Source of the DNA: an uncultured Chloroflexia bacterium | Lineage (GTDB): Bacteria; Chloroflexota; Anaerolineae; Anaerolineales; Anaerolineaceae | NCBI GenBank assembly: GCA_963704755.1 | Contig: OY969938.1 | Span: 1,320,001-1,352,000, forward strand | Reading direction: 5' to 3' | DNA: 32,000 nt | Shown: in pieces, positions 15,830 to 32,000 of the stretch | Layout of the letters: each line of letters begins with the position of its first letter | Position numbering within the stretch: the first letter of the stretch is position 1 | Notes under the pieces: generated by a model | What the model was told of the DNA's origin: nothing | What the model saw: only the letters and a program-made list of their open reading frames with translations | Databases searched by the model: none | Position numbers and translations under genes: made by a program

Positions 15830-15838
15830 GTATCTCTC

Positions 15839-17275
15839 CTAAGGCAGAGCCGTGATCGAAGCGACCCCATAATAACCCGCCGCGCAGGTATTGACCCAAT
15901 TGGTAGCAATTGGGCCCATGTCTTCCAGCCCGGAAACCACGTCCACCTCCGGGACAACCAGGTCGCGCTGGCCGTTGGCACGATCGGCCAGGATTTCAGC
16001 GTTGCGGCTGTCCCAACGGGCAGCTTTGGTCTGCAAAACCTGGATCTCCGGCCGCATCAGGCTGACGGCCCGCAACGGATAGAGCGCCAGTACCACCAGG
16101 GCCAGCAAGGCCGCCGCCCGCACCAATCCGCTGATCGCCCGGTCAGCCAGCCAGGCGGAAACGGCCATGCCCAGGCAAACAGCCGCGGCGCCCAGGCCGG
16201 ACAACAGGGCAAAGCGGGCCACCATTAAAGCCCGCCCGGCCGGGTAGAGCAGGCCGCCGTACACACTGGGGGCAATGGCGCAAATCACCAGGGCAAAACC
16301 AGCTGCCAGGGCGCCGGCTGCACCCCACAACAGCCCCTTGATTTTCGGCTTCATCTTAATCGAACCCGCCAGCAGGCCACAGCCGCCGGCTAAAAGCAGG
16401 TAAACCGCCAGGGGTAAGGGCACCGTGCGGAATAAATCGACCACAAAATCGACCGAATAGCGCAGGCTGTAGGGAATCAGGTCGATCAAGTGGGCCGGTG
16501 GGGGCATGACGGCCTGCCGCCAGGCGTTGGCCGGTGAAAGGGCCATGAGCAGCATGGCCAGCAGGGTGACCGCCAGCGGCGGCCACACCAGGGCAATCCC
16601 GCGGCTTATCTGCCGCCGCCAGCGCAGCACGATTACCAGGATCAGCGCCAGGATAAACGCGCCGGCCTGGAAGGCGGCGTAGGTCTCGGAAAGTCCGGCA
16701 GCCAGGAAAGCCAGGGGGGTAGTCAGCCATAGCACGCCCAGGCCCCGATGCGCCTCGAAGCCGCGGAACCAGGCCCGCAAACTCAACCAGACGATCAACA
16801 GGAACAGAACCAGGGGCAGGCTGTAATGGAGAGTGCCCATGCGCCAATAAATCGACTGGAGCCGGTCTGGAGCGGCGTAGGCGGCCGTGAAAACCAGCCC
16901 GGTGGAAAGAACCAGCCAGAGCCCGGCTGGATGCCGGGTGTTCAAGCGGTTCGCAGCCGCCCGCAGAGCCAACCAGGCGGCGGCCAGCCAGCCAAACAGT
17001 ACGACCGCCGGCTGCCAGCGCACGGCATTGGGCCCGAACAAATCGCCCAGGGCCACCATCCACACGGCCGAAAAACGATTTCCGCCGGTCTGGTACCAGT
17101 CCAGCGTGCCATTGAACAGCCCGCGATCCTGGACCTCATTGGAATAGCAATAATCGTCCGCCCACAGGCGCGAACTATTGCCCGCGTAGGCAATCGCCGC
17201 CACCCCGGCCAGAAAGCCCAGCAGGGCCAGGCCAATCAATAACGGTGTAATCCAACGGAATTTCGTCAGGGACAT
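15839..17275 (-). CDS. polytopic membrane protein, possible GT-C-fold glycosyltransferase or glycan polymerase
   Basis: 478 aa with at least 10 hydrophobic helices. An acidic motif (LWADDYCY) sits in the first predicted external loop, as in GT-C enzymes. Its start is 1 nt after the upstream stop. Confidence 0.45.
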   Translation of the reverse strand: MSLTKFRWITPLLIGLALLGFLAGVAAIAYAGNSSRLWADDYCYSNEVQDRGLFNGTLDWYQTGGNRFSAVWMVALGDLFGPNAVRWQPAVVLFGWLAAAWLALRAAANRLNTRHPAGLWLVLSTGLVFTAAYAAPDRLQSIYWRMGTLHYSLPLVLFLLIVWLSLRAWFRGFEAHRGLGVLWLTTPLAFLAAGLSETYAAFQAGAFILALILVIVLRWRRQISRGIALVWPPLAVTLLAMLLMALSPANAWRQAVMPPPAHLIDLIPYSLRYSVDFVVDLFRTVPLPLAVYLLLAGGCGLLAGSIKMKPKIKGLLWGAAGALAAGFALVICAIAPSVYGGLLYPAGRALMVARFALLSGLGAAAVCLGMAVSAWLADRAISGLVRAAALLALVVLALYPLRAVSLMRPEIQVLQTKAARWDSRNAEILADRANGQRDLVVPEVDVVSGLEDMGPIATNWVNTCAAGYYGVASITALP

Positions 17276-17276
17276 T

Positions 17277-18782
17277 TTATGATTTCGGGCTCCTCAGGTC
17301 ATAGACCAGGTAACCATCCCCCTGGCGATAGACCGGGTAATTATCGGCCAACAATTGCTTGACCTGCGGCTGTTTGTTCAATTCGTCAAAATCGGTGATC
17401 AAGAAAAAGTCTTTCCCGCCGGTCTCCTGCTTGAAATAGGAGCCCAGGTCAAAACTCTGGCCGGCCATCTCGCGCAGGTTGATATCCGCCGTGCTGAACC
17501 AGTTGGTTACGTCCAGCCAGCCCCAATAGGTAAACGCCGTGCTGTATTCTGGAGCAATCGCCACAATTTTATCATCCGGGGTGAATATCGCGCTGATCTG
17601 CTCCACCTGGGCCACCGCCTGGTTCTCGTTCACCGATTTGAGCGTATCGCGGGCAGCATAGATCTGCGACAGGCCAAACACGGCCAGGGCGGCGGCGACG
17701 GCCAGGGTTGCCAGCCAGCGCGGGCCCTGCAAGGACGAGAGCACCCTTTGCAAACCTGCCCCCGCACCCAGCGCGACCAGGGGCAGCAGCGGCAACTGGT
17801 AGTAATCGTGAGTAGAAATGTAATACGAAAACAGGACGCCGTACAGCAGGTACGCCGCCCCGGCCCCCAGCAGCAGCCCGCGCTTGGATCTGCCGGGCAG
17901 GCTGAAGATCCCCAGTGCTGCCAGCAGCACCCAGGGCAGCGGTGTGACCGTATCGACCTTCAACATCCACTGTAAGTAGAAGACTGGGTCCGACCACATC
18001 TGCGGGAAGAAGCGTAAACTAAACTGGCCCTGCATCAGGCCCAACCCCAGGGTAGTATAGGCCAGGTAAGCCCCGTAAGGCAGCACCGCCAGCACATTGA
18101 CCAGCCACCACTGCTTGCTGCGCAAGGCGTTTTTCAGGCCCAGGCCCCCCAGCGTCAGGCCGACCCAGGCGCCGGCCACAAAAAAAGCGGCTGTCGATTT
18201 GACATACACTGCCAGGCCGGTCAGCAGCCCGGCGGAAACCGCCCTGCCCCAACCAGGCTGCTGCTGCCAGCGCAGCATGCCCCACCACGACCAGACAATC
18301 ATGGCGACCATCAACGGATCCGGCTGGAAGGAGCGTGAAGCCAGGATGCCGTACTGCAGCAGCATATACAACAACAGGGCCACCAGCGCCCCCCAGCGGC
18401 CGATCAGCCTGCGCCCCAGCAAGTACAGACCAACACCGCCCAACGTCCAGAAAAAAATGGTGTACAGGCGTGGGATCCGCAGGTCGGCCGCGCCGGCCAG
18501 GCGATAGCCCCAGGCAGCCAACGTTTCCATAATCTGCGGCTCGATCAGCCCTTCGGCCTGCTGCTGGTGGATGGCGCGCTGCTGCTGCCATTGCGAAACG
18601 TCATCCAGGGTGCTGTAATACATCCCACGCGCGATCAGCGCCGAATGCAACTGGCGGGTAGCGTGAAAATCCAGCGGGGCGTCGCCCAAATCGTACAGCC
18701 GGATGGCCAGCCCGGCCACCAGGATCAGTAAAACGGCCGCCCAGTTGGCCAGGTTGGACCAGCGCAGCGGTTTAGCAGCCAA
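17277..18782 (-). CDS. GT-C glycosyltransferase, PMT_2/ArnT (GT39/GT83-like) family
   Basis: TTG start at 18782, with an in-frame TAG 5 codons upstream and GAGGG 8 nt upstream. The N-terminus LLILVAGLAIRLYDLGDAPLDFH is typical of PMT/ArnT-like enzymes. The protein is 501 aa and polytopic, with a soluble C-terminal domain. Confidence 0.65.
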   Translation of the reverse strand: MAAKPLRWSNLANWAAVLLILVAGLAIRLYDLGDAPLDFHATRQLHSALIARGMYYSTLDDVSQWQQQRAIHQQQAEGLIEPQIMETLAAWGYRLAGAADLRIPRLYTIFFWTLGGVGLYLLGRRLIGRWGALVALLLYMLLQYGILASRSFQPDPLMVAMIVWSWWGMLRWQQQPGWGRAVSAGLLTGLAVYVKSTAAFFVAGAWVGLTLGGLGLKNALRSKQWWLVNVLAVLPYGAYLAYTTLGLGLMQGQFSLRFFPQMWSDPVFYLQWMLKVDTVTPLPWVLLAALGIFSLPGRSKRGLLLGAGAAYLLYGVLFSYYISTHDYYQLPLLPLVALGAGAGLQRVLSSLQGPRWLATLAVAAALAVFGLSQIYAARDTLKSVNENQAVAQVEQISAIFTPDDKIVAIAPEYSTAFTYWGWLDVTNWFSTADINLREMAGQSFDLGSYFKQETGGKDFFLITDFDELNKQPQVKQLLADNYPVYRQGDGYLVYDLRSPKS

Positions 18783-18850
18783 GTCGGTATCCCTCTAGGA
18801 CCGCTTCGGAAACGAAAAAGGCAATGGCCATGGACAAATTGATCAAAGTC

Positions 18851-19807
18851 TCATTTCTCGGAAGTTGCCCGTCCGGCCAGGCGCTGCTTGCGCCGTTCCA
18901 GGTAAGCCGTACGCAGGCCTTCCAGGCCCAGCGGGCTGAACAAGGCATATAAAATCCGGCGCCAGTCCGCCAGCGCCACGCCAGGCGACTGCCAGGCCGC
19001 TTTCCAGTAGTCCTGCAAGGCTTTGCCGGGTAACCCCGCATCCAGGGCATAGAACGCATTGAGCCGGTGCGCCCCTGCCCACATTTTACGCCGGTTCGAG
19101 CGGGCAACGGCCGCAAAATCCGGATCCGATTCGAGCCAGCACGCAATGCGGTAGGCCTCTTCGCCAAAACGAGCCCCCAGGGCCATATTCTTGGCTTGCG
19201 GGTGAAAACGGGCGGCCGCCCAACGGACCCCGCGGGCGTGCTCCATAGGCGCAAGATTGGCTATACGCAGCCATAACTGGTGGTCGAGCAGGTACTGGTA
19301 GGAAAGGTCCAGCAGTCCGGCCTGTTCCAGTACCTCCCGGCGCATGAAGACCCCCGGTTGGCCGATGATCTTGAAATGCAGCAGGTCTTCCAGGCCCCAA
19401 TCGCCGTAACGCATAATGTTGATCCGTTCGCCAGCCGCGTCGATTGATTCGACGTCCGAATAGGCCAGCCCGATCGACGGGTTGACCCGGAAGAACTCGA
19501 CCGCCTGGGCAATCGCGCCCGGCCGGTACAGGTCGTCCGAATTTAACCAGGCCACGATCTCGCCCTGGGCACGCTGCAGGCCCTTGTTGATCCCGTCCGC
19601 CTGGCCGCGGTCGGGCTCCGAGACCCACCAGGCCAGCCGGTCCGCGTACCTGCGAATGATCTCCAGACTGCCATCGTTCGAGCCGCCGTCCGCCACCAGG
19701 TACTCGATGCGCGGGTAGGACTGCTCCAGCACCGAGCGCAGGGTCTGCTCCAGGTACGCTGCCTGGTTATAGGACGGGGTGATGATCGAGACGAGGGGGA
19801 AAATCAT
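18851..19807 (-). CDS. glycosyltransferase family 2 with C-terminal extension
   Basis: VSIITPSYNQAAYLEQTLRSVLEQSYPRIEYLVADGGSNDGS plus LNSDD. By eye, the first ~130 aa are about 60% identical to 15065..15829. Confidence 0.88.
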   Translation of the reverse strand: MIFPLVSIITPSYNQAAYLEQTLRSVLEQSYPRIEYLVADGGSNDGSLEIIRRYADRLAWWVSEPDRGQADGINKGLQRAQGEIVAWLNSDDLYRPGAIAQAVEFFRVNPSIGLAYSDVESIDAAGERINIMRYGDWGLEDLLHFKIIGQPGVFMRREVLEQAGLLDLSYQYLLDHQLWLRIANLAPMEHARGVRWAAARFHPQAKNMALGARFGEEAYRIACWLESDPDFAAVARSNRRKMWAGAHRLNAFYALDAGLPGKALQDYWKAAWQSPGVALADWRRILYALFSPLGLEGLRTAYLERRKQRLAGRATSEK

Positions 19808-19841
19808 ATGTTTTTTGGAACCATGAGGTGCGGATTTTCAA

Positions 19842-19983
19842 GTGTCATGTGTCAAGTGTCGGGTGTCACGGACGTGCTTCAGTTTTACGGTGTTTCCGTG
19901 TCTCAGTGCTGGCAGGGATACCCACCTGGCGTCCCAAGTGAAATTGTCAACCCAGAACTGAATCACTGAAACACTGAAGCACT
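19842..19983. repeat. spacer built of phased short direct repeats (gtgtca x4; cactgaa x3) with an inverted partner
   Basis: gtgtcatgtgtcaagtgtcgggtgtcacgg; gtgcttcagtttt...gtgtctcagtgct lies opposite gaactgaatcactgaaacactgaagcac. Confidence 0.6.
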
Positions 19984-19997
19984 CCCCTTACACATTT

Positions 19998-20729
19998 TTA
20001 AAACAAACTATCGTAGATTACCTTCGGGAACACGGTCAGTTTTCCATCCAGGGTCGCGTCCAGCACCTGGCGGCCGGCCTGGTGATAGGCCAGGCGGGCC
20101 GTGCGATAGGCCTGCTCGGAGGTTTCCAGGTCGGGCAATTGCCAGCGGAAACCCTTGCCAAAATAACCGGGATTGAAGTGGTTGGGATCATCCCCGGCGG
20201 ACACGACCGTGGTATTGGGCTTGCCCTTGGTGGCAAAATTATGGTCCACCCCGATCAGGATGACCGTCTCGAAGCCCAGGTAAAAGGCCACCTGCAGGGC
20301 CATATAGGTCACCGTGGCGCCTTCCCACATCCGCCCGGCGATATTGTGGGCAAAGGTCGGGCCGGTATAGGTGGAATAGAGGAAATACAGGTTATCCTGC
20401 GGCTGGAGCCAGTTGTGCGCTCGCCAGGAGACGAAGCGCGGCATCTTTAGCCCGAGGATATCCTCGGCGCACTGCTCGATCACCAGGTCGTTGACCGAAA
20501 GGTAGTAGCTGGTCTGAAAGCCCATGTCGGCAAAGGCCAGGTAGATCCGGTTCAAGCCGATGGTGTACTCATCCCGCAGGCGGGTCAAATCGGTGCGCGC
20601 CAGGCTGGGGCCGTTGCCCAGGATAAAGCAGCGCTCGCCGCGATGAATGTCTTTCAGCGCCGGCAGCTTGCGGATCGTGTCCTGCCGCCAGGGGTGAAAA
20701 GTCGCCTGAGGCCAATCTTTGGCTCGCAC
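19998..20729 (-). CDS. DUF115 / Maf (motility accessory factor)-like protein, candidate nonulosonic-acid transferase
   Basis: GTG start. The pattern CFILGNGPSL...GLNRIY...ALQVAFYLGFETVILIGVDHNF matches the GNGPSL + G(V/I)D core shared by DUF115/Maf and CstII-type sialyltransferases. Confidence 0.55.
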   Translation of the reverse strand: MRAKDWPQATFHPWRQDTIRKLPALKDIHRGERCFILGNGPSLARTDLTRLRDEYTIGLNRIYLAFADMGFQTSYYLSVNDLVIEQCAEDILGLKMPRFVSWRAHNWLQPQDNLYFLYSTYTGPTFAHNIAGRMWEGATVTYMALQVAFYLGFETVILIGVDHNFATKGKPNTTVVSAGDDPNHFNPGYFGKGFRWQLPDLETSEQAYRTARLAYHQAGRQVLDATLDGKLTVFPKVIYDSLF

Positions 20730-20807
20730 CAGGCCGTCCCGGGTTTCGCGCAGCGAATTTCAACCACGGGTCGGGCAGAGCTCCTTTAAGTGTCTCGCGT
20801 AATGAAC

Positions 20808-21560
20808 TCATTCGGTGCTCAACCTGGCCGTCGCGCCGCCGTCCACCACCAACGCCTGGCCGGTCATGAAGGAAGATTGGTCGTGGTCCGCCAGGAAATA
20901 GATGACCTTGGCGATCTCTTCCGAAGTACCCACCCGCCCGTTGACCGTTTTCCGGGCCAGGTTTTCCAGCCGTTCGGGAATGGTGCCGGTACCGCCCAGG
21001 TGGGCCCGCAGCATGGGCGTATCGACCGCACCCGGCAGCACGGCATTCACACGGATATTATCCGGCGCAAACTCGATCGCCATGGCGCGGGTCAAAGCCA
21101 GGATGCCGCCTTTGCTGGCCGCATAAGCGGCGATATTGGCCGATGTGGCAATGGCGTGCACGGACGACGTGTTGACTATCGCACCCCCACCCCCGGCGGC
21201 CAACAGCGGATGAGCCAGTTTGGCGCCCAGGAAGACCGAGCGCAGGTTGGAGGCCATGACTGCGTCCCACTCCTCGACGCTGGTCTCCAGGATCGGTTTG
21301 ACGATCTGGTAGGCGGCGTTGTTGATCAACGCGTCGAGGGTATCGGTATAGTCGCGCGCTTTTTGGTAAATCGCATCGAAATTCTTTACATCCGCCAGGT
21401 CAGCCTGAATGAACAGGCCTGGCTGCGGGAAGGGTTCACCGAAATCGTTGCGGTCCACGCCGATAACCCGCCAGCCTTTTTCAACGAAATAGACCACGGT
21501 GGCGCGGCCAATCCCCCCCGCCGCCCCGGTAATCAACATCACACGGTTTTCTGGATTCAT
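20808..21560 (-). CDS. SDR-family oxidoreductase (classical short-chain dehydrogenase)
   Basis: ITGAAGGIGRA (TGxxxGxG), NNAA, and S...YAASK catalytic residues. ATG 21560 (MNPENRVMLITG) is preferred over the track start 21620, which would add 20 non-conserved residues. Confidence 0.85.
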   Translation of the reverse strand: MNPENRVMLITGAAGGIGRATVVYFVEKGWRVIGVDRNDFGEPFPQPGLFIQADLADVKNFDAIYQKARDYTDTLDALINNAAYQIVKPILETSVEEWDAVMASNLRSVFLGAKLAHPLLAAGGGGAIVNTSSVHAIATSANIAAYAASKGGILALTRAMAIEFAPDNIRVNAVLPGAVDTPMLRAHLGGTGTIPERLENLARKTVNGRVGTSEEIAKVIYFLADHDQSSFMTGQALVVDGGATARLSTE

Positions 21561-21636
21561 TGTAAGTAACCAACCTGTTCTTCGAAGGATGCCCGGCTTG
21601 CCAACCATTTGCTCTAGCAACTACTCAAGCCAATGA

Positions 21637-21729
21637 ATGAAGTTCCTAAATTTGAGGTGTTTGCGGGGGCGATGCACCCGCAAACACCTCAAATTTAGGG
21701 CTTTTCCCATTGGATTGGGCAGTTACTTA
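21637..21729. repeat. palindromic intergenic repeat, copy C
   Basis: gaagttcc + cctaaatttgaggtgtttgcggg (21645-21667) / cccgcaaacacctcaaatttagg (21677-21699) + tail gcttttcccattggattgggcagttactt. Confidence 0.85.
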
Positions 21730-21773
21730 TTTTAAACCATCTCAGGGGATTTTCGGGCGAGGAATTTTTATTT

Positions 21774-21930
21774 CACCGCAGAGGCGCAGAGAGCGCGGAG
21801 AAGAAAAAAGATAACCACGGAGCACGGAGAGCACGGAGAAAAGAAAGAAAAGGGGAGAAGAGAAATTACTATTTACAAGAATGATAGCCTAAAGTGGATC
21901 GGCCCGGTCTCCAGACCGAGGCCGCTCTTC
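21774..21930. repeat. short relative of the 331-bp unit (two triple-heptamer modules + ggcccggtctccagaccgaggccg box)
   Basis: caccgcagaggcgcagagagcgcggagaag, aaccacggagcacggagagcacggag, agagaaattact...gtggatcggcccggtctccagaccgaggccgctctt match modules of 24278..25300 in permuted order. Confidence 0.75.
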
Positions 21931-22018
21931 GGCGTCGGACTACCAGCCCATAGACTGATAGTCCGGTGCTATTTACCCACCACTGCACCGGCCGAACCAT
22001 GCGTGGGCAGCCAGAACT

Positions 22019-22050
22019 CCCCTTCCCCCCGCGAAGCGTGGGGGAAGGGG
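22019..22050. repeat. GC hairpin ccccttcccc / ggggaagggg
   Basis: 10-bp stem (22019-22028 / 22041-22050), about 55 nt downstream of the stop of the minus-strand gene 22106..24169. There is no T-tract on either side. Confidence 0.5.
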
Positions 22051-22105
22051 CCGGGGGATGAGGGCGAAGCGCCGGACCCTCTCCTCGTTGCCTCATTCCT
22101 TCTTA

Positions 22106-24169
22106 CTATTTACTTCCCACAAACGCCGCGCACAAGGTGGTCTTGAAGAATGCGATCTCTGCGGATGTCAACGTCGGGTCACTGGCGGCATCCGGCGCCA
22201 GGAAGCGTTGGCAGACCAGGTAGCGCTGGCGATCATCCTTGTTGAGCTGGTCCAGGATCGGCTGGGCATCCTGCTCGCGATTGGCCCGCACCAGGCCTTC
22301 CAAAAACGGCATCCATTCGGATAGGTCCTGCGGGGCCAGGCCCAATGACTGCACCTGGTCGGCCAGGGAAGTGACCGTGTTCCAATCGCCGGCCTGGCGG
22401 GCCAGGCTGGCCTTTTGATAGTAATAGCACCAGGTATGGGCCGGTTCAGCCCCAAAAATCGAAGCGGGCACCACCGGCGGCTGGGCGGTCACGTCGATGC
22501 GATCCGCTTTCGAATACGGCGCTACTTCATCGACGACCGGGTCTTCCAATTCTGAAAGCTCCAGCCGGCTGCCGTCCTGGACATGGACGCACGAGCCGTT
22601 CCCCGGCCAGGTGATGATCAGCGACTGGTCAAAGTGACGGGTGAAGTCAAACGTGCGCACCGAGCGGTCCGAAGTCGAACCCATGCGCACTTCGTCGGCC
22701 GTGTCCGAGTTGAGCACTTCTGCCACCAGGGTGGTGTTGGCTACCCCGGGATAATAGATCAGGTTGGCCGGTGAGAAGGCCTCATAGTCCTCGGCCAGGC
22801 GGTAGCCGCTCGGCAGGTAGGCCATCAGCACCGTGTCTGGCTCGATCTGCGGGATGCGCCAGGAGACCTGCCACCAGAATTCCTGCTGATAGCTCCAGGC
22901 ATGCTTCCAGAAATCGATATTGTGGTACTGGGTCATGATCGAGATCACGATCAGGCCGGCCAGCAGCGGCGTGCGCCAGCGGGAGCGCACCGCCAGGAAG
23001 ATCAACCCGCCCAGCAGCATGACCACGCCCACCGTGGCCTGCAAGGTGTAGCGGTCGAACTGGTCCTTGAAATAAACGGTCCGGTCCGAGAGCAGCACCG
23101 GGATGAGCGTCACCAGGACGCCCAGGCCGCCGATGATGATGGCTGCCAGTTTCCAGCGGGCTGCCTGTGGATCCGCCTCTTCGGCGTCTTCTTCTTTCGC
23201 TACCCGGCGCCGTACCCAGCGGCGGTAACCCAAAAAGATCGCCGCGCCGGCCAGTCCCAGCGCCAGCGAGGCAAACCACAATCCGTAAGCCGAGAAGGTC
23301 GTGAGCTGGTAAAAGGGCACAAACCAGGCCAGCACGGTGGTTTCGAAAAAGTCCTTGATGGTTTCGGCTGCCAGTTGGACCGTCATGGCGAAAGGCGCAG
23401 CCAGATATTTGTGCGCCAATACCCCGGTGCTGGTGGCATAACGGGTGCTCTTGTAAATAAACACCCGCCAGAAGACGAACCCACCCACCACGGCCAGGTA
23501 AGGCAGCCAGATGAGGACCACTTTCTTGACCTGTTTCCAGAAGGGCAGCGGCTCTTCGCGCCAGGTCAGGTACCAGATCAGAAACAGGCGGATTCCTTCC
23601 AGGCCGATCATGTATTCGTAGATCAACGCGCACAGCAGCATCAAGGCCATCGACAGGCCGGTCAAGGCTGCTCGCAGTCCCTTGCGGGAGGTCTGCAAGG
23701 CCAGCACGGTCAGCAGCAGCGATAGAATCCCGGCGCTGTAGCCGACGAAATGGTTCTGGAAGGTGGCCGCATTGGGCTGCTGCATAAACCCCGGATAGAC
23801 GGCGAACAAAGCCGACATGGCCGTGGTCGCATAGACCTGCTTCGGCCACAGCTTGCGCAGCAGCCAGAACAGCCCGACCACGCCGGCCAGGCGGGCAAAG
23901 AAGGCAAACCAGGCCCAGGCGTGCGGGCTGTCGCCCAAGATATCGAAGGTGAACGCGTTGACGACCCCCATGAACGGTCGGTCGATCGAGAATTCCTCGA
24001 CGATCTTCTGCGGGCCGTAGGAATCACCGGCAAAGATCATATGCCAGTCGTCTTTGTAGAACCCCAGGCTTTGAATGTGCGGCAGGTTGCTGATCGAATA
24101 GAGCACCACAACCAGCAGGAGCGAAATAATCCATTCCCGGCGGGGAAGGCTGAGTTTTTGAGAAGTCAT
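22106..24169 (-). CDS. large polytopic membrane protein, GT-C-like N-terminal domain + soluble C-terminal domain
   Basis: 687 aa. It has an N-terminal TM, then GFYKDDWHMIF (an acidic first-loop motif), then about 12 further helices and a ~270-aa non-membrane C-terminus. ATG at 24169. Confidence 0.5.
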   Translation of the reverse strand: MTSQKLSLPRREWIISLLLVVVLYSISNLPHIQSLGFYKDDWHMIFAGDSYGPQKIVEEFSIDRPFMGVVNAFTFDILGDSPHAWAWFAFFARLAGVVGLFWLLRKLWPKQVYATTAMSALFAVYPGFMQQPNAATFQNHFVGYSAGILSLLLTVLALQTSRKGLRAALTGLSMALMLLCALIYEYMIGLEGIRLFLIWYLTWREEPLPFWKQVKKVVLIWLPYLAVVGGFVFWRVFIYKSTRYATSTGVLAHKYLAAPFAMTVQLAAETIKDFFETTVLAWFVPFYQLTTFSAYGLWFASLALGLAGAAIFLGYRRWVRRRVAKEEDAEEADPQAARWKLAAIIIGGLGVLVTLIPVLLSDRTVYFKDQFDRYTLQATVGVVMLLGGLIFLAVRSRWRTPLLAGLIVISIMTQYHNIDFWKHAWSYQQEFWWQVSWRIPQIEPDTVLMAYLPSGYRLAEDYEAFSPANLIYYPGVANTTLVAEVLNSDTADEVRMGSTSDRSVRTFDFTRHFDQSLIITWPGNGSCVHVQDGSRLELSELEDPVVDEVAPYSKADRIDVTAQPPVVPASIFGAEPAHTWCYYYQKASLARQAGDWNTVTSLADQVQSLGLAPQDLSEWMPFLEGLVRANREQDAQPILDQLNKDDRQRYLVCQRFLAPDAASDPTLTSAEIAFFKTTLCAAFVGSK

Positions 24170-24277
24170 TGATTTGATCCCAAGGGTGTGAGTAGGTACA
24201 GCACGCCTTATTGTAACGTGAGTTTGGAAAATTTCGTAGGCGCAGGAAAATCACCAAAGTGTGGGGAGAAGAGATTA

Positions 24278-25300: not shown

Positions 25301-25440
25301 ACGAAGAAAGAAATTAGGAAAGAGAATTTGTTAAACGCAGATCCGCCCGGCCCCTCGCAACCCTCGGCCGAGGCCGCTCTTCTGCACCAAGCCAAGAACC
25401 CGGCTTAGAAAGCCGGGCTACCCTCGCGCTCTTCTGCGCC

Positions 25441-25472
25441 AAACGAAAAGCCCGGCTTAGAAAGCCGGGCTA
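25441..25472 (-). terminator. intrinsic terminator of the 2-hydroxyacid dehydrogenase operon end
   Basis: The minus strand reads agcccggctt-tct-aagccgggct followed by tttcgttt. A second copy of the hairpin at 25398-25419 lacks a T-tract. Confidence 0.6.
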
Positions 25473-25475
25473 CAA

Positions 25476-25556
25476 CTAATCGCTAACAGCTAATTGCTAA
25501 TCGCTAACAGCTAATCGCTAAAAGCCAACCGCTAATCGCTACCCGCTATCCGCTCC
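25476..25556. repeat. microsatellite-like ctaatcgcta(a/c)cag repeats overlapping the 3' end of the CDS 25532..26503
   Basis: ctaatcgcta occurs 4 times, plus the variant ctaattgcta. On the minus strand it reads tagcgattag..., giving TAG in multiple frames. Confidence 0.75.
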
Positions 25557-26503
25557 AAATCTCTCGCATCGATGCCCAGACCCTCCAGCATGTTGCGGAT
25601 GGTGCTCCAGTGCACCCGCTCCCAGGCGGACGGGCTGGAATTGGTGTTGTGCGGGGCCAGCATGACGTTATCCATCTTCAGCAGGGGCGAATTGGCCGAC
25701 AGGGGTTCCACCTCGAACACGTCCAGGGCCGCTCCGGCGATCTGGCCCTGCTGCAGGGCCGCGACCAGGGCGGGCTCGTCCACCAGCGGACCGCGGGCCG
25801 TGTTGATCAAAATGGCTTCTTTCTTCATCCGGGCCAGGGTTTCGGCCCGCATAATGTGCAAGCTGCTCGGGTTCAAGTCGCAGTTCAGGCTGACAAAGTC
25901 GGCCCGGGCCAACAACTCGTCCAGCGGCAGCATGGTGACGCCGTTCTCGATCACAAAATCCGGTGCAATGCGGATAATATCGTTGCCCAGCAGGTCCATA
26001 CCAAAGGCCCGCGCCCGGCGGATGACGGCCTTGCCGATATTGCCCAGCCCGATCACCCCCAGGGTGCACTCGGAAAGCGAACGTCCGGGCAATTTGGTCC
26101 AGGCGCCGGTCCGCATGGCCCGGTCCATCCAGGGCTGGCGGCGGGCGAAGGCCAGCATGTAGGCCATTACACTGTCCGCAACCGGTAAGGTGAAGGCGTT
26201 CGGCGTGTTGCGCACCTGGATCCCCAGCCGGGCAGCCGCCTGCTGGTCGATTGAATCGATCCCGGTGCCCCACTTGGAGATCACCTTCAGGCGCGGCAGG
26301 CAGGCCTGCTGGACCCGCTCGCTGAAACGGTCATCGCCGCACAGGGCCGCGTCGAACTGGCCGGCGAAACGTAAAATTTCTTCTTCCGAAAGGCGTTCGT
26401 TGACCTCCGGGACGATCAAATCCAGGTTGTAATGGGCAAAGACCGGGCGAAATCGGTCCAGAAAAGGCAGTAAATAGGGTGCAGATACCAAAACGGTTGG
26501 CAT
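25532..26503 (-). CDS. D-isomer-specific 2-hydroxyacid dehydrogenase (PGDH/GhrB-like), NAD-binding
   Basis: GLGNIGKAV (GxGxxG), NTARGPLVDE, and the ALDVFEVEP...LAPH catalytic His region, in a 323-aa protein. Confidence 0.85.
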   Translation of the reverse strand: MPTVLVSAPYLLPFLDRFRPVFAHYNLDLIVPEVNERLSEEEILRFAGQFDAALCGDDRFSERVQQACLPRLKVISKWGTGIDSIDQQAAARLGIQVRNTPNAFTLPVADSVMAYMLAFARRQPWMDRAMRTGAWTKLPGRSLSECTLGVIGLGNIGKAVIRRARAFGMDLLGNDIIRIAPDFVIENGVTMLPLDELLARADFVSLNCDLNPSSLHIMRAETLARMKKEAILINTARGPLVDEPALVAALQQGQIAGAALDVFEVEPLSANSPLLKMDNVMLAPHNTNSSPSAWERVHWSTIRNMLEGLGIDARDLERIAGSD

Positions 26504-26517
26504 GGATGGATGGGCTC

Positions 26518-27216
26518 CTATGATTTTGTTTCCTCGCCTGATTCCAGGCGCCTGCTCATCAGCGTGTCCGCGACCAGGAAATCCAGTTCCTCGTCGATGT
26601 CCCAGGCTTCGGCTGCGTCGATTTGGTACAGGTACGGCCGTTCGCCGATGCGGTTACGGCGCTGTTCCAGCGTCCGCCTGCTGAACATATATATACACGA
26701 GTTTTCTTCATACACCGGAGGCAGGTCCTGGGTGCGCAGCAAAATAGCCGGGTTATGGTTGATCGGCCGGGCCAGGCCGTCCCACAAGCGGGATTGCAGG
26801 CGGGTGACCGAAAAGAGCGAATCGTAAGCGGGGTAATTTTGAGAGAATACATCGATTGTGCGAGAAATCGTCTCTGCTTTCAAAAGCGGGTTAGTCGAAT
26901 GGGTTTGCAGGTAGAAATCGGCCTGAAACTGGGAGGTATCGTACATCAAAATCTCGTTCATCGGCACGGTATCCGCGGTCAGCTCGACCGGCCGGCGCAG
27001 CACCTGCACCTGGGGGAACGCCTGGGCAATCCCTTCGATTAGCACGTCCGAATCGGTATCCACCACCACCCGGCTGATCTGGGGCACTTGCAGCAAAGTC
27101 GCCAGGATGTGCTGGTAGAGCGGCTTGCCTGCCAGGGGCCGGTAATTTTTCCCCTGCACCCGGACCGAATTGTGCCGCATGGGCACCAGAGCGCAAATAC
27201 TGAACGAATTATTCAT
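26518..27216 (-). CDS. NeuA/KdsB-family cytidylyltransferase (CMP-nonulosonate/ulosonate synthetase-like)
   Basis: The N-terminus ALVPMRHNSVRVQGKNYRPLAGKPLYQHIL matches the acylneuraminate cytidylyltransferase P-loop pattern (IPAR.GSK....KN...L.GKPL). 232 aa. Confidence 0.75.
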   Translation of the reverse strand: MNNSFSICALVPMRHNSVRVQGKNYRPLAGKPLYQHILATLLQVPQISRVVVDTDSDVLIEGIAQAFPQVQVLRRPVELTADTVPMNEILMYDTSQFQADFYLQTHSTNPLLKAETISRTIDVFSQNYPAYDSLFSVTRLQSRLWDGLARPINHNPAILLRTQDLPPVYEENSCIYMFSRRTLEQRRNRIGERPYLYQIDAAEAWDIDEELDFLVADTLMSRRLESGEETKS

Positions 27217-27487: not shown

Positions 27488-28453
27488 TTAACCCTCGTAT
27501 TTGATCGGCGCGACCTCACGCCGGTCGGGTTCGCCGGCCAGGCCGGCATCGGCCCGCGGATAATAAAAGGTCTGCTTCAGCTTCCAGGTCAGCGGGCCGG
27601 ACTGCTGGTAGCCCTTGTAGGTACCCCAGAACTGCATCAGGCGGAAGCGGGCGATATTGAGCCACTCGCGGCCGAGCGCTTTCTCTTGCCCGGCGGCGCG
27701 CCAGTCCGTACGCACGTTGGTCCACCACAGGCGCAGGAAATCGTTCAGGCCAAACCGTTCCTGCGGGTAAATCTGCTTGAAGGCCATGCCCTCACGACGG
27801 TAGCGGTTAAGAATACCTTGCCAGGTCTCGTTGTGCACGTGGATAATCTCGGCCTCGGCCACATAAGCAATGGCCTGGCCCTGTTCCTGGGCCCAGCGAG
27901 CCCAACCCAGGTCTTCCAGGCCGGGCAGCAGCTCATCGTAGGGATGCTTCTGCCACAGCCCCCGGCGGATGGCGGCGTTGGCGTTGTTGCAGAAGGGCGT
28001 CGGCTGGTGGGCCAGCGACTGATCGGGGAACCAGGTACAAAAGATCTGGTGCTCGGAATATTTCGAACTCTGCGCCCCGCGCTGCTTGCCGTAGCTGACC
28101 GCCACCTGCGGGTCGTCGAACGGCTCCAGCAGGCGCTCGAGCCAATCGGGATAGACCGGGTACACGTGGGCCGAGGCCATCACCACCAGGTCACTGCGCG
28201 CCTGGGCCACGCCCAGGTTGAGCGAACGTCCAAAGGTGAACTCCTGCGGATGAATGTGCACCACTTCGACCGGGAAGCGCGAAGCGATGCTCACGGTGGC
28301 GTCCTGCGAACCCGAATCGACCAGGATGATTTGCACGTCCTTGACCGTCTGCTCGAGAATGCCGGTCAGCAGGCGGCCGATATGTTTCTCCTCGTTGTAG
28401 GCCCGGATCACAATCGAGCAGCGCGGTTTGGCCGTGTTGGCGTCCTCAGTCAC
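27488..28453 (-). CDS. glycosyltransferase family 2
   Basis: CSIVIRAYNEEKHIGRLLTGILEQT...ILVDSGSQD. GTG 28453 gives a GTGACTGA overlap with the upstream stop (28446-28448). The track start at 28513 would overlap the upstream gene by 68 nt. Confidence 0.82.
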   Translation of the reverse strand: MTEDANTAKPRCSIVIRAYNEEKHIGRLLTGILEQTVKDVQIILVDSGSQDATVSIASRFPVEVVHIHPQEFTFGRSLNLGVAQARSDLVVMASAHVYPVYPDWLERLLEPFDDPQVAVSYGKQRGAQSSKYSEHQIFCTWFPDQSLAHQPTPFCNNANAAIRRGLWQKHPYDELLPGLEDLGWARWAQEQGQAIAYVAEAEIIHVHNETWQGILNRYRREGMAFKQIYPQERFGLNDFLRLWWTNVRTDWRAAGQEKALGREWLNIARFRLMQFWGTYKGYQQSGPLTWKLKQTFYYPRADAGLAGEPDRREVAPIKYEG

Positions 28454-30077
28454 CGGAGCCCTCCTCCCCGTCCGGGAGCAGGAACGGCCCGTTCTGTAAG
28501 ATCCCTTCGACAATGGCCCGCATGCTGGCCGAGTTCTCAGGCAGCAGGTCGGACCAGCTCAACTTACCCTTAAGGAGCACGAAACCGGGGGTCATGTCCG
28601 GCTCAAGGAATGCCTGCAAAGGCAGCGAGGTCTTGAACAACTGGTAATATAAGAAGCGCCGGGCATTTTGGGCAAATTCAGCCGGCAGGGGTACTTTGTC
28701 CAGGGCCAGAAAATCCTCAGCCATCTGCAAGTAAGCCGCCGGTGAGGCCGGGAAATAAACCGTGGGGAGCTGGGTAAAACGGGCCCGCCCGGCGCACAGC
28801 ACCGCCGCGCCCAGGATGGCCGCTTCCAGCCCGATGGTCGAGTTATAGATCATCACAAACTTGGAACGCTGGATCAGCTCGTAGGAGCTGAGGTATTCGC
28901 GCGGGGGCACGAACCACACGTTGGGCAGTTCAGTCACCCGGTTGTGCGCGACCCAGGCCGCCACACTTGCGCGGGCCTGCTTGCCCGGCCGGTCTTCATC
29001 CGGGTGGGCGCGGATCACGAACAAGGTCTCCGGGTGGGCCTTGATCAGGCCCAAAACTGCATCCAGCCAGGCGAACATATCCGTAAACACGGTGTTGGCG
29101 TGGACCTGGCTGGTATCGAAGATCACGTTGGTGAACACCGGCACGATTTGCCTGAACCCGGCTGCCTTCCGGTCGAAATCCTCTCCCAGGCCGCGCATCT
29201 CCGGCCAAAACTGCACCCCGGCCATGCTGAACTTGCCCTGGATGCGTTTTTCCAGGTAAGCGTTCAGGCGCTCCTGCTGGCTATCGGAAAGCTGAAAATC
29301 GTCCGGGATATCGATCGGGTAAGCCGTGGCCTGGCCGTGGGTGAAATAGGCGGTCATGGGCTGCAAACCCACCTCGTGGGTGACCACCCACAGCCCATTT
29401 TCGAGCGCAATCCGCCGCGCGACGGCTTCCGGGAAGGCAATGCCGTTGAACACCACCAATCCACGCGGGTGCTGCTCGCTCAGAAAGCGGCGGAACTCGC
29501 CCGCTACCCGCCAGGCCGATAGGATGTACTGGCGTAACAGAAAACGGGTGCCTTCATCGTCCGGCAGGTCGTGGCAGCGCAGGGCCCACCGCAGCGAGGG
29601 CAGCACCAGCTCGCCCAAAGGCAGTTCCTGCCAGGTGAAGTCCTGCAACTTCGCCAGCGGCAATCCATGCAAGGCCCGCTCCAGGTCGGGATCGGCCTGA
29701 TAGCTGAACCCGTGCACCTGCCCGCCCGTGTAAAGGTGATCCGATTGGGCCACACAGGCATCACAGGGCGGGGCCTGGTTCGGGTCGTCCTTGTTGGTGC
29801 CGAGCTGGCAGCGGCTCATCCCGGCCCGGCAAACGAAATGAATCACCGGTGTCCCGGCCAGGCGCACCCCCCAGGAAGCCAACAGGGTAAAGGCGGCGTT
29901 CTGGCTCATCCAGGCCAGGCGGCTGGAAGCATTGAAAAAAGCTACCGGCCGTTCATCCGGCTTTAGGCCGGCCCGGCGCTCTACTTCGGCGGCCAGGGCC
30001 GCGATCCGGCGGTTATTGCGCGCTTGCAGTCCCCGGCGTTGGATGCCCTGGGACAGGTAAAAGTAAGACCACTTCAT
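28446..30077 (-). CDS. KpsC/KpsS-like (Capsule_synth-type) glycosyltransferase candidate with N-terminal Cys cluster
   Basis: FVIRAHPDE (HP motif) and VMIYNSTIGLEAAILGAAVLCAG resemble the Capsule_synth / beta-Kdo-transferase signature. CRAGMSRC...CDAC forms a 4-Cys cluster. ATG lies 9 nt after the NeuB-like stop. Confidence 0.5.
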   Translation of the reverse strand: MKWSYFYLSQGIQRRGLQARNNRRIAALAAEVERRAGLKPDERPVAFFNASSRLAWMSQNAAFTLLASWGVRLAGTPVIHFVCRAGMSRCQLGTNKDDPNQAPPCDACVAQSDHLYTGGQVHGFSYQADPDLERALHGLPLAKLQDFTWQELPLGELVLPSLRWALRCHDLPDDEGTRFLLRQYILSAWRVAGEFRRFLSEQHPRGLVVFNGIAFPEAVARRIALENGLWVVTHEVGLQPMTAYFTHGQATAYPIDIPDDFQLSDSQQERLNAYLEKRIQGKFSMAGVQFWPEMRGLGEDFDRKAAGFRQIVPVFTNVIFDTSQVHANTVFTDMFAWLDAVLGLIKAHPETLFVIRAHPDEDRPGKQARASVAAWVAHNRVTELPNVWFVPPREYLSSYELIQRSKFVMIYNSTIGLEAAILGAAVLCAGRARFTQLPTVYFPASPAAYLQMAEDFLALDKVPLPAEFAQNARRFLYYQLFKTSLPLQAFLEPDMTPGFVLLKGKLSWSDLLPENSASMRAIVEGILQNGPFLLPDGEEGSGD

Positions 30078-30086
30078 GCGCTAGGG

Positions 30087-30962
30087 TCAGTCGGTCACCC
30101 GGCGTAACTTTTTCAGCGAAGATAACTCGCTGTCATAGACCTTTTTGACGCCGTCGCCCAGGGCCTGTTCGGTCACGCGGATGTATTTGACCAGGCGTTC
30201 GAAGCCGCCCGGTTCGACTGAGGCAGCCTGGTCTGAGCCCCACATGGCCCGGTCGAGGGTAATATGGCGTTCTACCAGGCAGGCGCCTAACCCGACCGCC
30301 ACCACACTGGGGATCAGGCCCACTTCGTGGCCTGAATAGCCGATCGGGCAGTCGTATTCGCCCTTGAGCGTCTGTACCATGCGCAGGTTCAGGTCTTCCG
30401 GCGGGCAGGGATAGGCGCTGGTGGTGTGGCAAATCACCAGCCGGCCAGTGTCCAGGTATTGGATCGCCTGCTTGATCTGGTCCTGGGTGGACATGCCGGT
30501 GGAACAAATGACCGTCCGGCCGGTGCTGGTGAGCTTTTTCAGCAGGTCGTGATCGGTCAAGGCCGCCGAGGGCACCTTATAGGCTACCGGGTCGAAAGCC
30601 TCCATGAAATCCACCGAGGGTTCATCCCAGACCGAAGCGAACCAGGTGACGCCGATCTTTTTGGCGTAAGCATCGATCTCGCGGTACTGCTTCTCATCAA
30701 ATTCCACTTTATAGCGGTAATCCAGATAGGTGATGTATCCCCAGGGGGTTTCACGCATCACGTTGCGCTGGTCAACCGGCGTACACAGCTCCGGCGTGCG
30801 TTTCTGGAATTTGACCGCATCGATACCGGTTTGTTTGGCCACGTCCATCAACCTTTTGGCAATTTCCACATCGCCGTTGTGGTTGATTCCGATCTCCGCC
30901 ACAATGTAGGTCGGTTGACCTTCGCCGATCAACCGGTCCCCAATTTTTACTGTCTTCGCCAT
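30087..30962 (-). CDS. NeuB-family sialic-acid-type (nonulosonate) synthase, short form without C-terminal SAF domain
   Basis: YIVAEIGINHNGDVEIAKRLMDVAKQTGIDAVKFQKR and the HxV/GYSGHE region. It is 291 aa, versus about 346-350 aa for canonical bacterial NeuB. Confidence 0.85.
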   Translation of the reverse strand: MAKTVKIGDRLIGEGQPTYIVAEIGINHNGDVEIAKRLMDVAKQTGIDAVKFQKRTPELCTPVDQRNVMRETPWGYITYLDYRYKVEFDEKQYREIDAYAKKIGVTWFASVWDEPSVDFMEAFDPVAYKVPSAALTDHDLLKKLTSTGRTVICSTGMSTQDQIKQAIQYLDTGRLVICHTTSAYPCPPEDLNLRMVQTLKGEYDCPIGYSGHEVGLIPSVVAVGLGACLVERHITLDRAMWGSDQAASVEPGGFERLVKYIRVTEQALGDGVKKVYDSELSSLKKLRRVTD

Positions 30963-31016
30963 AGGTTCTCCATTTGGTTTATGCAGGAATAATGTAACCG
31001 TTCAGCCTTACCAACT

Positions 31017-31110
31017 AAAACCCCGAATTTGAGATGTTTACACGGACGAAGCCCGCACAAACATCTCAAATTCGAAAATTCTTTACCAGCCTGTCCGGTT
31101 ACGAAATAAT
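31017..31110. repeat. palindromic intergenic repeat, copy D
   Basis: ccccgaatttgagatgttt ... aaacatctcaaattcg (31021-31075) + tail aaaattctttaccagcctgtccggttacg. Confidence 0.8.
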
Positions 31111-31131
31111 TTGCTCAAAAGCATACTTCCT

Positions 31132-32000
31132 CTATCCAGCCTGGCGCTCTACCAGCAAGTCGCACAGTTCGCGCACCGCACCGTGGCCGCCCGGCCGCGA
31201 AAGGACCACGTCGGCCGCCCGGCGAGCTTCCGGCTGGGCATCCGCTACCACTACCCCACACCCGACCAGCGGGAAGCAGGGCACATCGTTGATATCGTTC
31301 CCCAGGTAAATCGCTTCCTGCGGATCGATTTGTTGTTCCCTTAAGTAATTCTTTAACACTCCGGTCTTGTCGGCCACACCCTGGATATAGGGCAAGCCGA
31401 TTTTCTCACAGCGGGCCTGGACGACTTTGTTCGTCTCGGCCGAGATCACCACCACTTTGACGCCGGTATGCATCAGCCTGGCCAGCCCGAGGCTATCGGA
31501 GCGATATACAGCCACGTATTCGTGCGCCTGGTCATCCACCCAGGCGCGATTATCGGTCATGACCCCGTCGAAATCGAAGACCACCAGCTTGACCTGCTCT
31601 GGCAGCGGGCGGCGCGCTTGCCCGGGCGTGACCATTTCCAGACCCGATTCGCGCACCAACCGCTCGGCATTGATCCAATCACCCGGGTTGTCGATATCCA
31701 CCGTGTAGCGCGGGTCCACCATCACCGGAAAAATTACCCTGCCGCTCATCGAACCCTGCTCCAGGATGGTGGTGGAGCGGATGGCATCGATATGGCCGGT
31801 CTGCCAGTAAACCGGTGGCAGGACCTGGCGCGGGGCGTTGTAAGGCTCGGCAATGCCGGCTACGTCGATCAGGTTCTTCATGTAACCGGTCTGGGGATCC
31901 ACTCGCCACATTTTGTGCGGGTTTTGCCCGGATGGCACGATCCCGCGGACCGAATCGACCTCCGGGTGATCGATCAGGGTTTGCACGGCCTGATCGACCA
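31132..32000 (-). CDS. bifunctional NeuA-type cytidylyltransferase / KdsC (YrbI)-type HAD phosphatase, 5' end outside window
   Basis: The frame is open to the window edge (VDQAVQTLIDHPEV...). The N-terminal part resembles the C-terminal half of CMP-NeuAc synthetases. The C-terminal ~165 aa carry FDFDGVMTDN (motif I) and YLGNDINDVP (motif IV), as in KdsC/KDN-9-P phosphatases. Confidence 0.8.
   Translation of the reverse strand, partial: VDQAVQTLIDHPEVDSVRGIVPSGQNPHKMWRVDPQTGYMKNLIDVAGIAEPYNAPRQVLPPVYWQTGHIDAIRSTTILEQGSMSGRVIFPVMVDPRYTVDIDNPGDWINAERLVRESGLEMVTPGQARRPLPEQVKLVVFDFDGVMTDNRAWVDDQAHEYVAVYRSDSLGLARLMHTGVKVVVISAETNKVVQARCEKIGLPYIQGVADKTGVLKNYLREQQIDPQEAIYLGNDINDVPCFPLVGCGVVVADAQPEARRAADVVLSRPGGHGAVRELCDLLVERQAG

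Follow-up and report, generated by a model that had tools for sequence, protein, structure and literature searches.

A conserved Anaerolineae glycan locus that probably makes a CMP-activated Kdn-type sugar acid through a phosphorylated intermediate

Synthesis of a nonulosonic acid through a phosphorylated intermediate is a pathway logic already known from Bacteroides, algae and animals, and no new kind of pathway is proposed here for the two genes described below. These genes are located at the end of a 32,000-nucleotide stretch of DNA of an uncultured Chloroflexia bacterium of the family Anaerolineaceae (assembly GCA_963704755.1, contig OY969938.1, positions 1,320,001 to 1,352,000; referred to as the window), and they encode a NeuB-family synthase without SAF domain and a protein in which a cytidylyltransferase is fused to a phosphatase-like domain of the HAD family. 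The source organism is related to Bellilinea and Longilinea. The region is the core of a glycan locus conserved in Anaerolineae (Chloroflexota), and analysis of its sequence suggests that the locus probably makes a Kdn-type 3-deoxy-non-2-ulosonic acid, activated with cytidine monophosphate (CMP), via a phosphorylated intermediate.

In Bacteroides thetaiotaomicron the same three activities are encoded side by side (locus L085), by the genes for a Kdn-9-phosphate (Kdn-9-P) phosphatase (BT1713), a Kdn-9-P synthase (BT1714) and a cytidylyltransferase (BT1715). The window synthase is 35% identical to BT1714 and shares with it the motif around the FG/WG..TY loop, and the window HAD domain is 31% identical to BT1713, with Glu56, Arg64 and Lys67. 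However, BT1714 carries a SAF domain (346 aa), the Bacteroides activities reside in three separate proteins with another gene order, and BT1715 is an SpsF-like cytidylyltransferase with no BLASTP match to either of the two window cytidylyltransferases. The Kdn-9-P synthetase of Prymnesium parvum consists of NeuB only (312 aa), is also 35% identical to the window synthase, contains KFQKR and YG.TYG.HR.FLEF and is specific for mannose 6-phosphate (Man-6-P), but this organism is a eukaryote in which no KdsC-type phosphatase was found and the CMP-Kdn synthetase is a separate, membrane-anchored protein (PMC6200933). Of the vertebrate proteins, NANS is the best-scoring characterised homologue of the synthase (40% identity) and CMAS has the layout of the fusion, with an N-terminal cytidylyltransferase and a C-terminal KdsC-like domain, whereas NANS has a SAF (antifreeze-like) domain and dephosphorylation in animals is carried out by NANP, an unrelated HAD protein.

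Operons of the Streptomyces SCO4879-SCO4881 type, linked by context to a Kdn-containing teichulosonic acid, contain a cytidylyltransferase-HAD fusion gene immediately before the gene of a SAF-less NeuB sharing 60-62% identity with the window synthase, and the window HAD domain shows the GND.ND and S.E.N variants of the protein of PDB entry 3MMZ. In these loci a DUF6716 glycosyltransferase replaces the Capsule_synth protein of the window, and no match to the short-chain dehydrogenase/reductase (SDR), the GFO-type oxidoreductase, the second cytidylyltransferase or the 2-hydroxyacid dehydrogenase was found. The canonical bacterial NeuB/NeuA/NeuC, PseI and LegI pathways share the NeuB TIM-barrel fold family and the CTP_transf_3 activation step, but they use unphosphorylated sugars, SAF-bearing synthases without the KFQKR and WG..TY motifs and a NeuC-type hydrolysing epimerase, and they need no phosphatase.

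The core features of the window are the following:

30087..30962, minus strand: SAF-less NeuB-family synthase of 291 aa, predicted Kdn-9-phosphate-type synthase using phosphoenolpyruvate (PEP) and a hexose 6-phosphate (from Pfam, BLASTP and motifs)
31135..31599, minus strand: KdsC-type (C0) HAD phosphatase domain of the fusion, predicted Kdn-9-P phosphatase (from NCBIfam models, PDB matches and residues)
31600..32000, minus strand: C-terminal part of the CMP-sugar synthetase (CTP_transf_3) domain of the fusion (from the full protein in contig L001 and PDB matches)

In the proposed pathway, the SAF-less NeuB would condense PEP with a hexose 6-phosphate, most simply Man-6-P to give Kdn-9-P. The C-terminal KdsC-type HAD domain of the fusion would remove the 9-phosphate and its N-terminal cytidylyltransferase domain would convert the free acid and cytidine triphosphate (CTP) into the CMP-sugar, dephosphorylation being probably coupled to activation within a single protein, and a KpsC/KpsS-like GT-B enzyme encoded immediately downstream may then move the acid from the CMP-sugar to an acceptor. 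Observed are the domains, their intact residues for catalysis and substrate binding, the placement in the family and the linkage of the genes across phyla, and we infer from them Man-6-P as substrate, Kdn as product, the activity of the HAD domain and the donor of the transferase. Man-6-P is favoured because no gene for the supply of N-acetylmannosamine (ManNAc) or ManNAc-6-phosphate (ManNAc-6-P) was found in the window or in contig L001, and because of the Streptomyces parallel and the P. parvum precedent. A CMP-activated KDN-like acid made via a 9-phosphate had been suggested in an earlier note on this DNA, and the suggestion is supported by the grouping of the synthase, the residues of the HAD domain and the recurring gene pair, the product being deduced from these.

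The Pfam analysis of the 291-aa synthase revealed NeuB as its sole domain, matched over the full profile (1-241 of 241, 247 bits), with no match to SAF. The synthase scored 246 bits with the NeuB model TIGR03569 (cut-off 399.65), covering profile positions 1-275 of 329 only, and 201 bits with the PseI model TIGR03586, below the equivalog threshold of 340.25. The BLASTP alignment with NANS (40% identity, 208 bits) ended at NANS residue 291 of 359, the SAF domain of NANS starting just past this point, at residue 294. The 291-aa NeuB-family protein without SAF domain reported in the earlier note is therefore confirmed. A frameshift concealing a SAF domain, which that note had named as a refutation, was ruled out: the following gene, a 543-aa open reading frame (ORF), begins at 30077, only 9 bp past the synthase stop, and the 119 closest cluster representatives in a collection of 5.8 billion proteins are 280-293 aa long, nearly all 291-292, with the NeuB domain alone, so the short length of the synthase is genuine. 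The residues nearly invariant in the clade (E23, K51, Q53, R55, K129, H212, E231 and H233) are all present, D244 is likewise conserved in the clade alignment, and the metal- and PEP-binding residues of the NeuB family (PF03102) are thus in place. Two motifs of the clade, KFQKR and TPWG..TY..Y....EF, occur in the synthase as well.

When 1.84 billion cluster representatives were searched exhaustively with phmmer, 19,691 matches were obtained, and SAF was absent in 110 and present in 15 of the 125 nearest representatives, which were those examined. The domain is present in BT1714 (346 aa) and NANS (359 aa) and absent from the P. parvum enzyme (312 aa), which indicates that SAF was lost or gained inside the phosphate-sugar group. 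The earlier note had taken the missing SAF domain as a sign of the phosphate route; this was rejected, its absence being common and both BT1714 and NANS being SAF-bearing. A C-terminal Lys-Leu-Arg is conserved in 80 of 98 SAF-less members, the Arg corresponding to position 287 of the synthase, where SAF-bearing members have mostly Ala, Gly or Ser. In N. meningitidis NeuB, the SAF domain supplies Arg314 to the active site of the partner subunit, and the alignment allows the hypothesis, offered only as such, that the tail Arg287 could stand in for the arginine supplied by SAF.

The family placement of the synthase was analyzed against the characterised phosphate-sugar enzymes human NANS (the sequence used being exactly NP_061819.2), BT1714 (read from the B. 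thetaiotaomicron contig, adjoining BT1713) and the P. parvum Kdn-9-P synthetase. The phmmer scores were 206.7 bits with NANS, 145.5 with the P. parvum enzyme and 141.8 with BT1714, followed by 132.4 with C. jejuni PseI (8H2C), 124.8 with 6NCS, 114.3 with SpsE (1VLI) and 95.0 with N. meningitidis NeuB (NmNeuB). In a neighbour-joining (NJ) tree of 132 sequences the synthase, NANS, BT1714 and the P. parvum enzyme formed one clade, without PseI, 6NCS, SpsE or NmNeuB, and this clade obtained a bootstrap of 74/100 (NJ, 38-sequence subset), which is moderate and not strong. Two motifs, K-F/M-Q/T-K-R/S and the loop [W/F/Y]G..TY..[H/Y][K/R]..[L/V]E[F/L], are common to these four proteins, and neither was found in PseI, NmNeuB, SpsE or 6NCS. 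For this reason the 290-residue NeuB chain of 6NCS, although without SAF, was set apart as another type of SAF-less protein. Concerning substrates, the P. parvum enzyme accepts Man-6-P only and rejects ManNAc-6-P, arabinose 5-phosphate, mannose and ManNAc (PMC6200933 Table 1), whereas BT1714 takes Man-6-P and NANS takes both Man-6-P and ManNAc-6-P (PMC6200933 Tables 1 and 2). With moderate confidence, this placement suggests that the synthase belongs to the sugar-6-phosphate-using group (NANS/Kdn-9-P synthase); the PseI, NmNeuB and SpsE chains used for comparison lay apart from it.

The gene upstream of the synthase, on the same strand, runs from 31132 to beyond 32000 (minus strand) and is cut by the window end, past which it continues for about 360 bp. 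The missing part is supplied by the Logan contig L001, 99.9% identical over window positions 28871-32000, in which the complete protein (L001:4397-5626) has 409 aa, with CTP_transf_3 at the N-terminus (PF02348, 74.3 bits) and the HAD domain at the C-terminus. The part inside the window holds FDFDGVMTDN and GNDINDVP, and CTP_transf_3 was not detected by Pfam in it, only the C-terminal piece of this domain being there. The cytidylyltransferase domain has a PARGGSKG.P.KN-type N-terminal loop, IIPARGGSKGIPHKNI, and its PDB matches were NeuA 9FTB (92 bits), 6IFD, 1EYR and mouse CMAS 1QWJ. Mouse CMAS structures cover both halves, 1QWJ aligning with residues 8-240 of the fusion and 3EWI with residues 255-401. 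It has reportedly already been noted by Daughtry et al. in 2013 that Kdn-9-P phosphatase orthologues are fused to the nucleotidyltransferase of the pathway; literature searches on 3MMZ and on a phosphatase domain of CMP-Kdn synthetase gave nothing useful.

The best PDB match of the HAD domain was 3MMZ (135 bits), a putative HAD hydrolase, presumably of Streptomyces avermitilis, that shares the unusual S-x-E-x-N and GND.ND variants with it, and BT1713 scored 75 bits. When 75 HAD domains encoded beside SAF-less NeuB genes were aligned with BT1713 (its sequence confirmed against PDB 3E81), the equivalents of D10, D12, E56, R64, K67 and K80 (BT1713 numbering) were invariant in all of them, and the window domain also has the S/T54 equivalent. 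In the KDO-8-P phosphatases 3MN1 and 1J8D, Arg occupies position 56 and either Ser or Asp position 67, so that the window domain, with Glu in place of Arg and scores below the KdsC cut-offs, differs from KDO-8-P phosphatase KdsC, while it has the HAD motifs and the Glu56, Lys67 and Arg64 of a BT1713-type Kdn-9-P phosphatase of the '8KDOP' subfamily. Since 4HGQ is BT1713 E56A and 4HGR is BT1713 E56A/K67A, E56 and K67 are residues probed by the depositors, and Lu et al. in 2009 are said to have named Glu56 and Lys67, with Arg64, as sugar-binding and marker residues. The HAD domain is thus predicted to be a KdsC-family (C0-type) sugar-acid phosphatase and not a non-sugar phosphatase, the latter having been named earlier as a possible refutation.

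The linkage of these genes was analyzed by a genome scan (one genome per GTDB species, 20-sequence query alignment), which yielded 80 loci whose ORFs were searched with the window proteins. A HAD domain, in most cases fused to a cytidylyltransferase, is encoded just upstream of the synthase or elsewhere in its locus in about 73 of the 80 loci when the table is read by eye, and beside the synthase in 62 of 78 by a strict automatic adjacency rule, which under-counts HAD neighbours, the stop-to-stop ORFs overlapping. Nearly all Anaerolineae loci start with a GFO-type oxidoreductase, an SDR, the cytidylyltransferase-HAD fusion, a SAF-less NeuB and a Capsule_synth protein, followed by a family-2 glycosyltransferase (GT2), the second cytidylyltransferase, the 2-hydroxyacid dehydrogenase, an SDR and an MptE-like protein, the window and Bellilinea caldifistulae being alike, and the synthase is about 80% identical across genera of Anaerolineae. 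The minimal pair, fusion then SAF-less NeuB, was also found in Streptomyces (seven loci), Acidimicrobiia, Myxococcota, Gemmatimonadaceae and Kiritimatiellales, and the order SDR, stand-alone HAD and NeuB in Ignavibacteria and others. Elsewhere there are single-chain fusions of HAD+NeuB (P0243), cytidylyltransferase+HAD+NeuB (P0244), cytidylyltransferase+NeuB (P0257, P0271, P0278) and NeuB+MptE-like. The fusion is not unusual, as it is present in most of the 80 loci and in many phyla and has the architecture of vertebrate CMAS. Four Anaerolineae loci (L021, L026, L040, L050) contain two SAF-less NeuB paralogues each, about 55% and 68% identical to the synthase, the fusion adjoining the more distant copy.

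In S. coffeae a divergent GT2 gene is followed by genes for a DUF6716 glycosyltransferase, the cytidylyltransferase-HAD fusion and a NeuB-only protein, in agreement with the way in which S. coelicolor SCO4878-SCO4881 has been described (glycosyltransferase, NeuE-like, NeuA, NeuB), a PhoP-activated cluster implicated in a phosphate-free wall polymer (PMC3479208). The main wall polymer of Streptomyces is a teichulosonic acid of galactose and Kdn (PMC11481543, PMC7831098).

The genes located downstream of the synthase, and continuing the locus, are the following:

28446..30077, minus strand: 543-aa GT-B glycosyltransferase of the Capsule_synth (KpsC/KpsS) family, predicted CMP-sugar-acid transferase (from Pfam, AlphaFold2 model and Foldseek)
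27488..28513, minus strand: family-2 glycosyltransferase, ORF as listed, the true start being probably further downstream (Glycos_transf_2, 86.5 bits)
26518..27216, minus strand: second, stand-alone cytidylyltransferase of 232 aa, weakly PseF-like (CTP_transf_3, 102.6 bits)
25532..26503, minus strand: D-isomer-specific 2-hydroxyacid dehydrogenase of 323 aa (2-Hacid_dh_C, 200.7 bits)
15065..24169, minus strand: continuation of the conserved glycan locus, with a 687-aa membrane protein, SDR, MptE/Maf-like protein, GT2, PMT_2, DUF6056 and GT2 (from Pfam)

The 543-aa protein, whose gene is kept downstream of the synthase in Anaerolineae, scored 26.5 bits with Pfam Capsule_synth (PF05159, cut-off 20), and a search of PDB sequences with it gave no match. 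Its AlphaFold2 model (mean pLDDT 87.9) has a GT-B fold according to Foldseek, with the KpsC beta-Kdo transferases 6MGC, 8FUX and 6MGB as top TM-scores (TMt 0.50). The sequence RAHPDE is invariant in 37 homologues, and in sialyl- and Kdo-transferases an HP motif touches the CMP phosphate; the KpsC motif QxxxKD was not found as such in the protein. On the basis of the model, the protein is predicted to be a transferase for the CMP-sugar. A role as NeuC-like UDP-GlcNAc 2-epimerase was judged unlikely: epimerases lead by E-value, but with a TM of only 0.21-0.34, and Pfam Epimerase_2 gave 13 bits (E 0.036), whereas Capsule_synth was above its cut-off. No gene for a NeuC-type (Epimerase_2) epimerase or NanE was detected among the approximately 25 larger window ORFs scanned (mostly of at least 150 aa) or in the 4.7 kb that follow the window, which agrees with the absence of a neuC-type epimerase remarked on before.

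The GT2 of 27488..28513 is syntenic in Bellilinea and many Anaerolineae. The second cytidylyltransferase scored 62 bits with the PseF model, below cut-off, and its gene and that of the 2-hydroxyacid dehydrogenase, 14 bp apart, form a pair conserved across Anaerolineae loci. On the other side of the synthase, the SDR gene (L001 3579-4403) and the fusion gene, which starts at 4397, overlap, with a GFO/IDH/MocA oxidoreductase gene nearby. The SDR resembles the KduD, gluconate-5-dehydrogenase and sorbitol-6-P dehydrogenase models, always below cut-offs. These two oxidoreductases may tailor the substrate or the product, and the final sugar may be a derivative or isomer of Kdn; together with the cytidylyltransferase/dehydrogenase pair, they leave room for a modified Kdn or a second activated acid.

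Several observations weigh against the proposed synthesis of a CMP-activated Kdn-type acid. BT1714 (141.8 bits) is only slightly ahead of PseI (132.4), the tree support is moderate and from NJ only, and outside the phosphate-sugar group the tree and score comparison was limited to PseI, 6NCS, SpsE and NmNeuB. The HAD domain scored below cut-off with the KdsC models PRK09484 (112.9 bits, cut-off 208) and TIGR01670 (89.6 bits, cut-off 106.95) and with the KDN-9-P phosphatase model NF058599 (89.3 bits, cut-off 180), the last one being of the Bacteroides type. Asp103 of BT1713, where it binds Mg2+, is replaced by Asn in 69 of the 75 HAD domains, as in 3MMZ, and the homologous C-terminal domain of vertebrate CMAS is catalytically inactive. 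The adjacent transferase resembles Kdo transferases, and the conserved SDR and GFO oxidoreductases have no role in a plain route from Man-6-P to CMP-Kdn and are absent from the Streptomyces loci. In addition, the tie between the SCO4879-4881 cluster and the Kdn polymer depends on what Ostash et al. reportedly found in 2014, and NANS, the top characterised relative, prefers ManNAc-6-P. The Asn at position 103 and the CMAS architecture of the fusion would fit a canonical route, with a synthase acting on a free sugar and a HAD domain that serves in oligomerisation without being catalytic, a role reported for this domain in vertebrate CMAS. This is very unlikely considering that neither the two catalytic aspartates (nucleophile and general acid) nor Lys80 nor the residues that bind the sugar (Glu56, Arg64 and Lys67) vary among the 75 domains, that stand-alone HAD genes adjoin the synthase in several phyla, that HAD+NeuB fusions without cytidylyltransferase (P0243) are not explicable by a scaffold role for the latter, and that the synthase lies outside the free-sugar PseI and NmNeuB references.

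An animal-like route, from ManNAc-6-P to N-acetylneuraminic acid (Neu5Ac) 9-phosphate, which the HAD domain would dephosphorylate and the cytidylyltransferase would convert into CMP-Neu5Ac, is suggested by the similarity to human NANS (206.7 bits, 40% identity), which uses ManNAc-6-P besides Man-6-P (PMC6200933 Table 2), and by the match of both fusion halves to those of mouse CMAS. We regard it as improbable, since genes of the NeuC, NanE, NanK or GNE type were detected neither in the window nor in L001 nor in the Pfam lists for the Bellilinea block, the HAD domain belongs to the KdsC/BT1713 type (Glu56, Lys67) and not to that of animal NANP, the 60-62% identical orthologues belong to Streptomyces, a genus with Kdn and not Neu5Ac in its wall polymer, and the SAF-less P. 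parvum enzyme rejects ManNAc-6-P. The product could also be a different or tailored ulosonic acid, the SDR and GFO proteins making an unusual sugar phosphate for the synthase, or oxidising or epimerising Kdn, to give an isomer or derivative of Kdn or a Kdo-like acid with eight carbons. The position of the SDR gene, overlapping the fusion and upstream in most Anaerolineae loci, its presence with HAD+NeuB in Ignavibacteria and other phyla and its absence from Streptomyces loci, its likeness to the three dehydrogenase models, the higher scores of the HAD domain with KdsC models than with the KDN-9-P phosphatase model, the nearness in fold of the adjacent transferase to KpsC Kdo transferases and the two SAF-less NeuB paralogues of some Anaerolineae loci all point in this direction. 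Nevertheless, Glu56 and Lys67 fit the Kdn-9-P phosphatase pattern and not that of KDO-8-P phosphatase, no arabinose-5-P isomerase gene was seen, and the oxidoreductases could serve other sugars of a large glycan locus, so that this alternative is considered unlikely. A broader proposal, that Anaerolineae make an undescribed, oxidoreductase-tailored Kdn-type acid by the 9-phosphate route as a conserved envelope or glycoprotein component (in view of the about 80% identity of the synthase between genera), and that the Leu-Arg tail of the SAF-less synthase replaces the SAF arginine, is conceivable from these sequences, although doubtful.

The preferred reading, a CMP-activated Kdn-type acid made via a phosphorylated intermediate and not Neu5Ac, gives a defensible function to two genes that, across hundreds of Anaerolineae genomes, databases label 'N-acetylneuraminate synthase' and 'acylneuraminate cytidylyltransferase', and KFQKR, the WG..TY loop and Glu56/Lys67 of the HAD domain are simple markers by which NeuB homologues may be assigned to one route or the other. 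Anaerolineae are filamentous and abundant in anaerobic digesters and in granular sludge, and Kdn was measured in extracellular polymers from anaerobic granular sludge (PMC10483923). This sludge Kdn is without known producer and the locus is a candidate source; among the papers searched, none was found that links nonulosonic acids to Anaerolineae.

Additional features have been observed in the extended locus. The gene order of 15065..24169 is the same in Bellilinea caldifistulae (L003). The MptE/Maf-like protein (19998-20729, minus strand) belongs to this conserved block, and a protein found elsewhere (P0291, 941 aa) joins a SAF-less NeuB to an MptE-like domain; there are thus hints of a second, Maf-type transferase for the sugar. 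L003 also contains, at 1-2005, genes for a canonical SAF-bearing NeuB of 357 aa and for a KdsB-like cytidylyltransferase of 261 aa, the third in this locus, and because of these extra genes the CMP-activated acid sugars of Bellilinea may be more than one. Between the GFO and SDR genes (L001 1970-2710 and 3102-3557; L003 6365-7906) there are genes for paralogous secreted or lipoprotein-like proteins, with a long linker rich in Thr and Pro and a C-terminal domain rich in Cys. These proteins, conserved only in L001, L002, L003 and L035 and without match in Pfam/NCBIfam, may be glycosylation targets of the locus. A phosphoglucomutase/phosphomannomutase gene (4153-5613, minus strand) and a gene for a Bac_transf initiating sugar transferase (8684-9313, minus strand) are located 20-25 kb from the synthase and fusion genes.

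A scan of the whole window with Rfam gave no family match. The 169-bp spacer between the fusion and synthase genes, which in Bellilinea has 38 bp only, contains the following repeat:

31024..31074, no strand assigned: perfect 16-nt inverted repeat with a 19-nt loop (from repeat search)

A tandem array at 24277-25307, consisting of three full copies and a partial fourth copy of a 331-bp unit (97-99% identical), lies in the gap between the genes for the 2-hydroxyacid dehydrogenase and the 687-aa membrane protein, each unit containing a 71-aa ORF with GTG start on the plus strand. At 25375-25555 there are two direct copies of 47 nt, both containing a GC-rich hairpin (CCCGGCTT..AGCCGGG), and after them short CTAATCG-like repeats of 7/14/21-nt periodicity that overlap the 3' end of the dehydrogenase gene.

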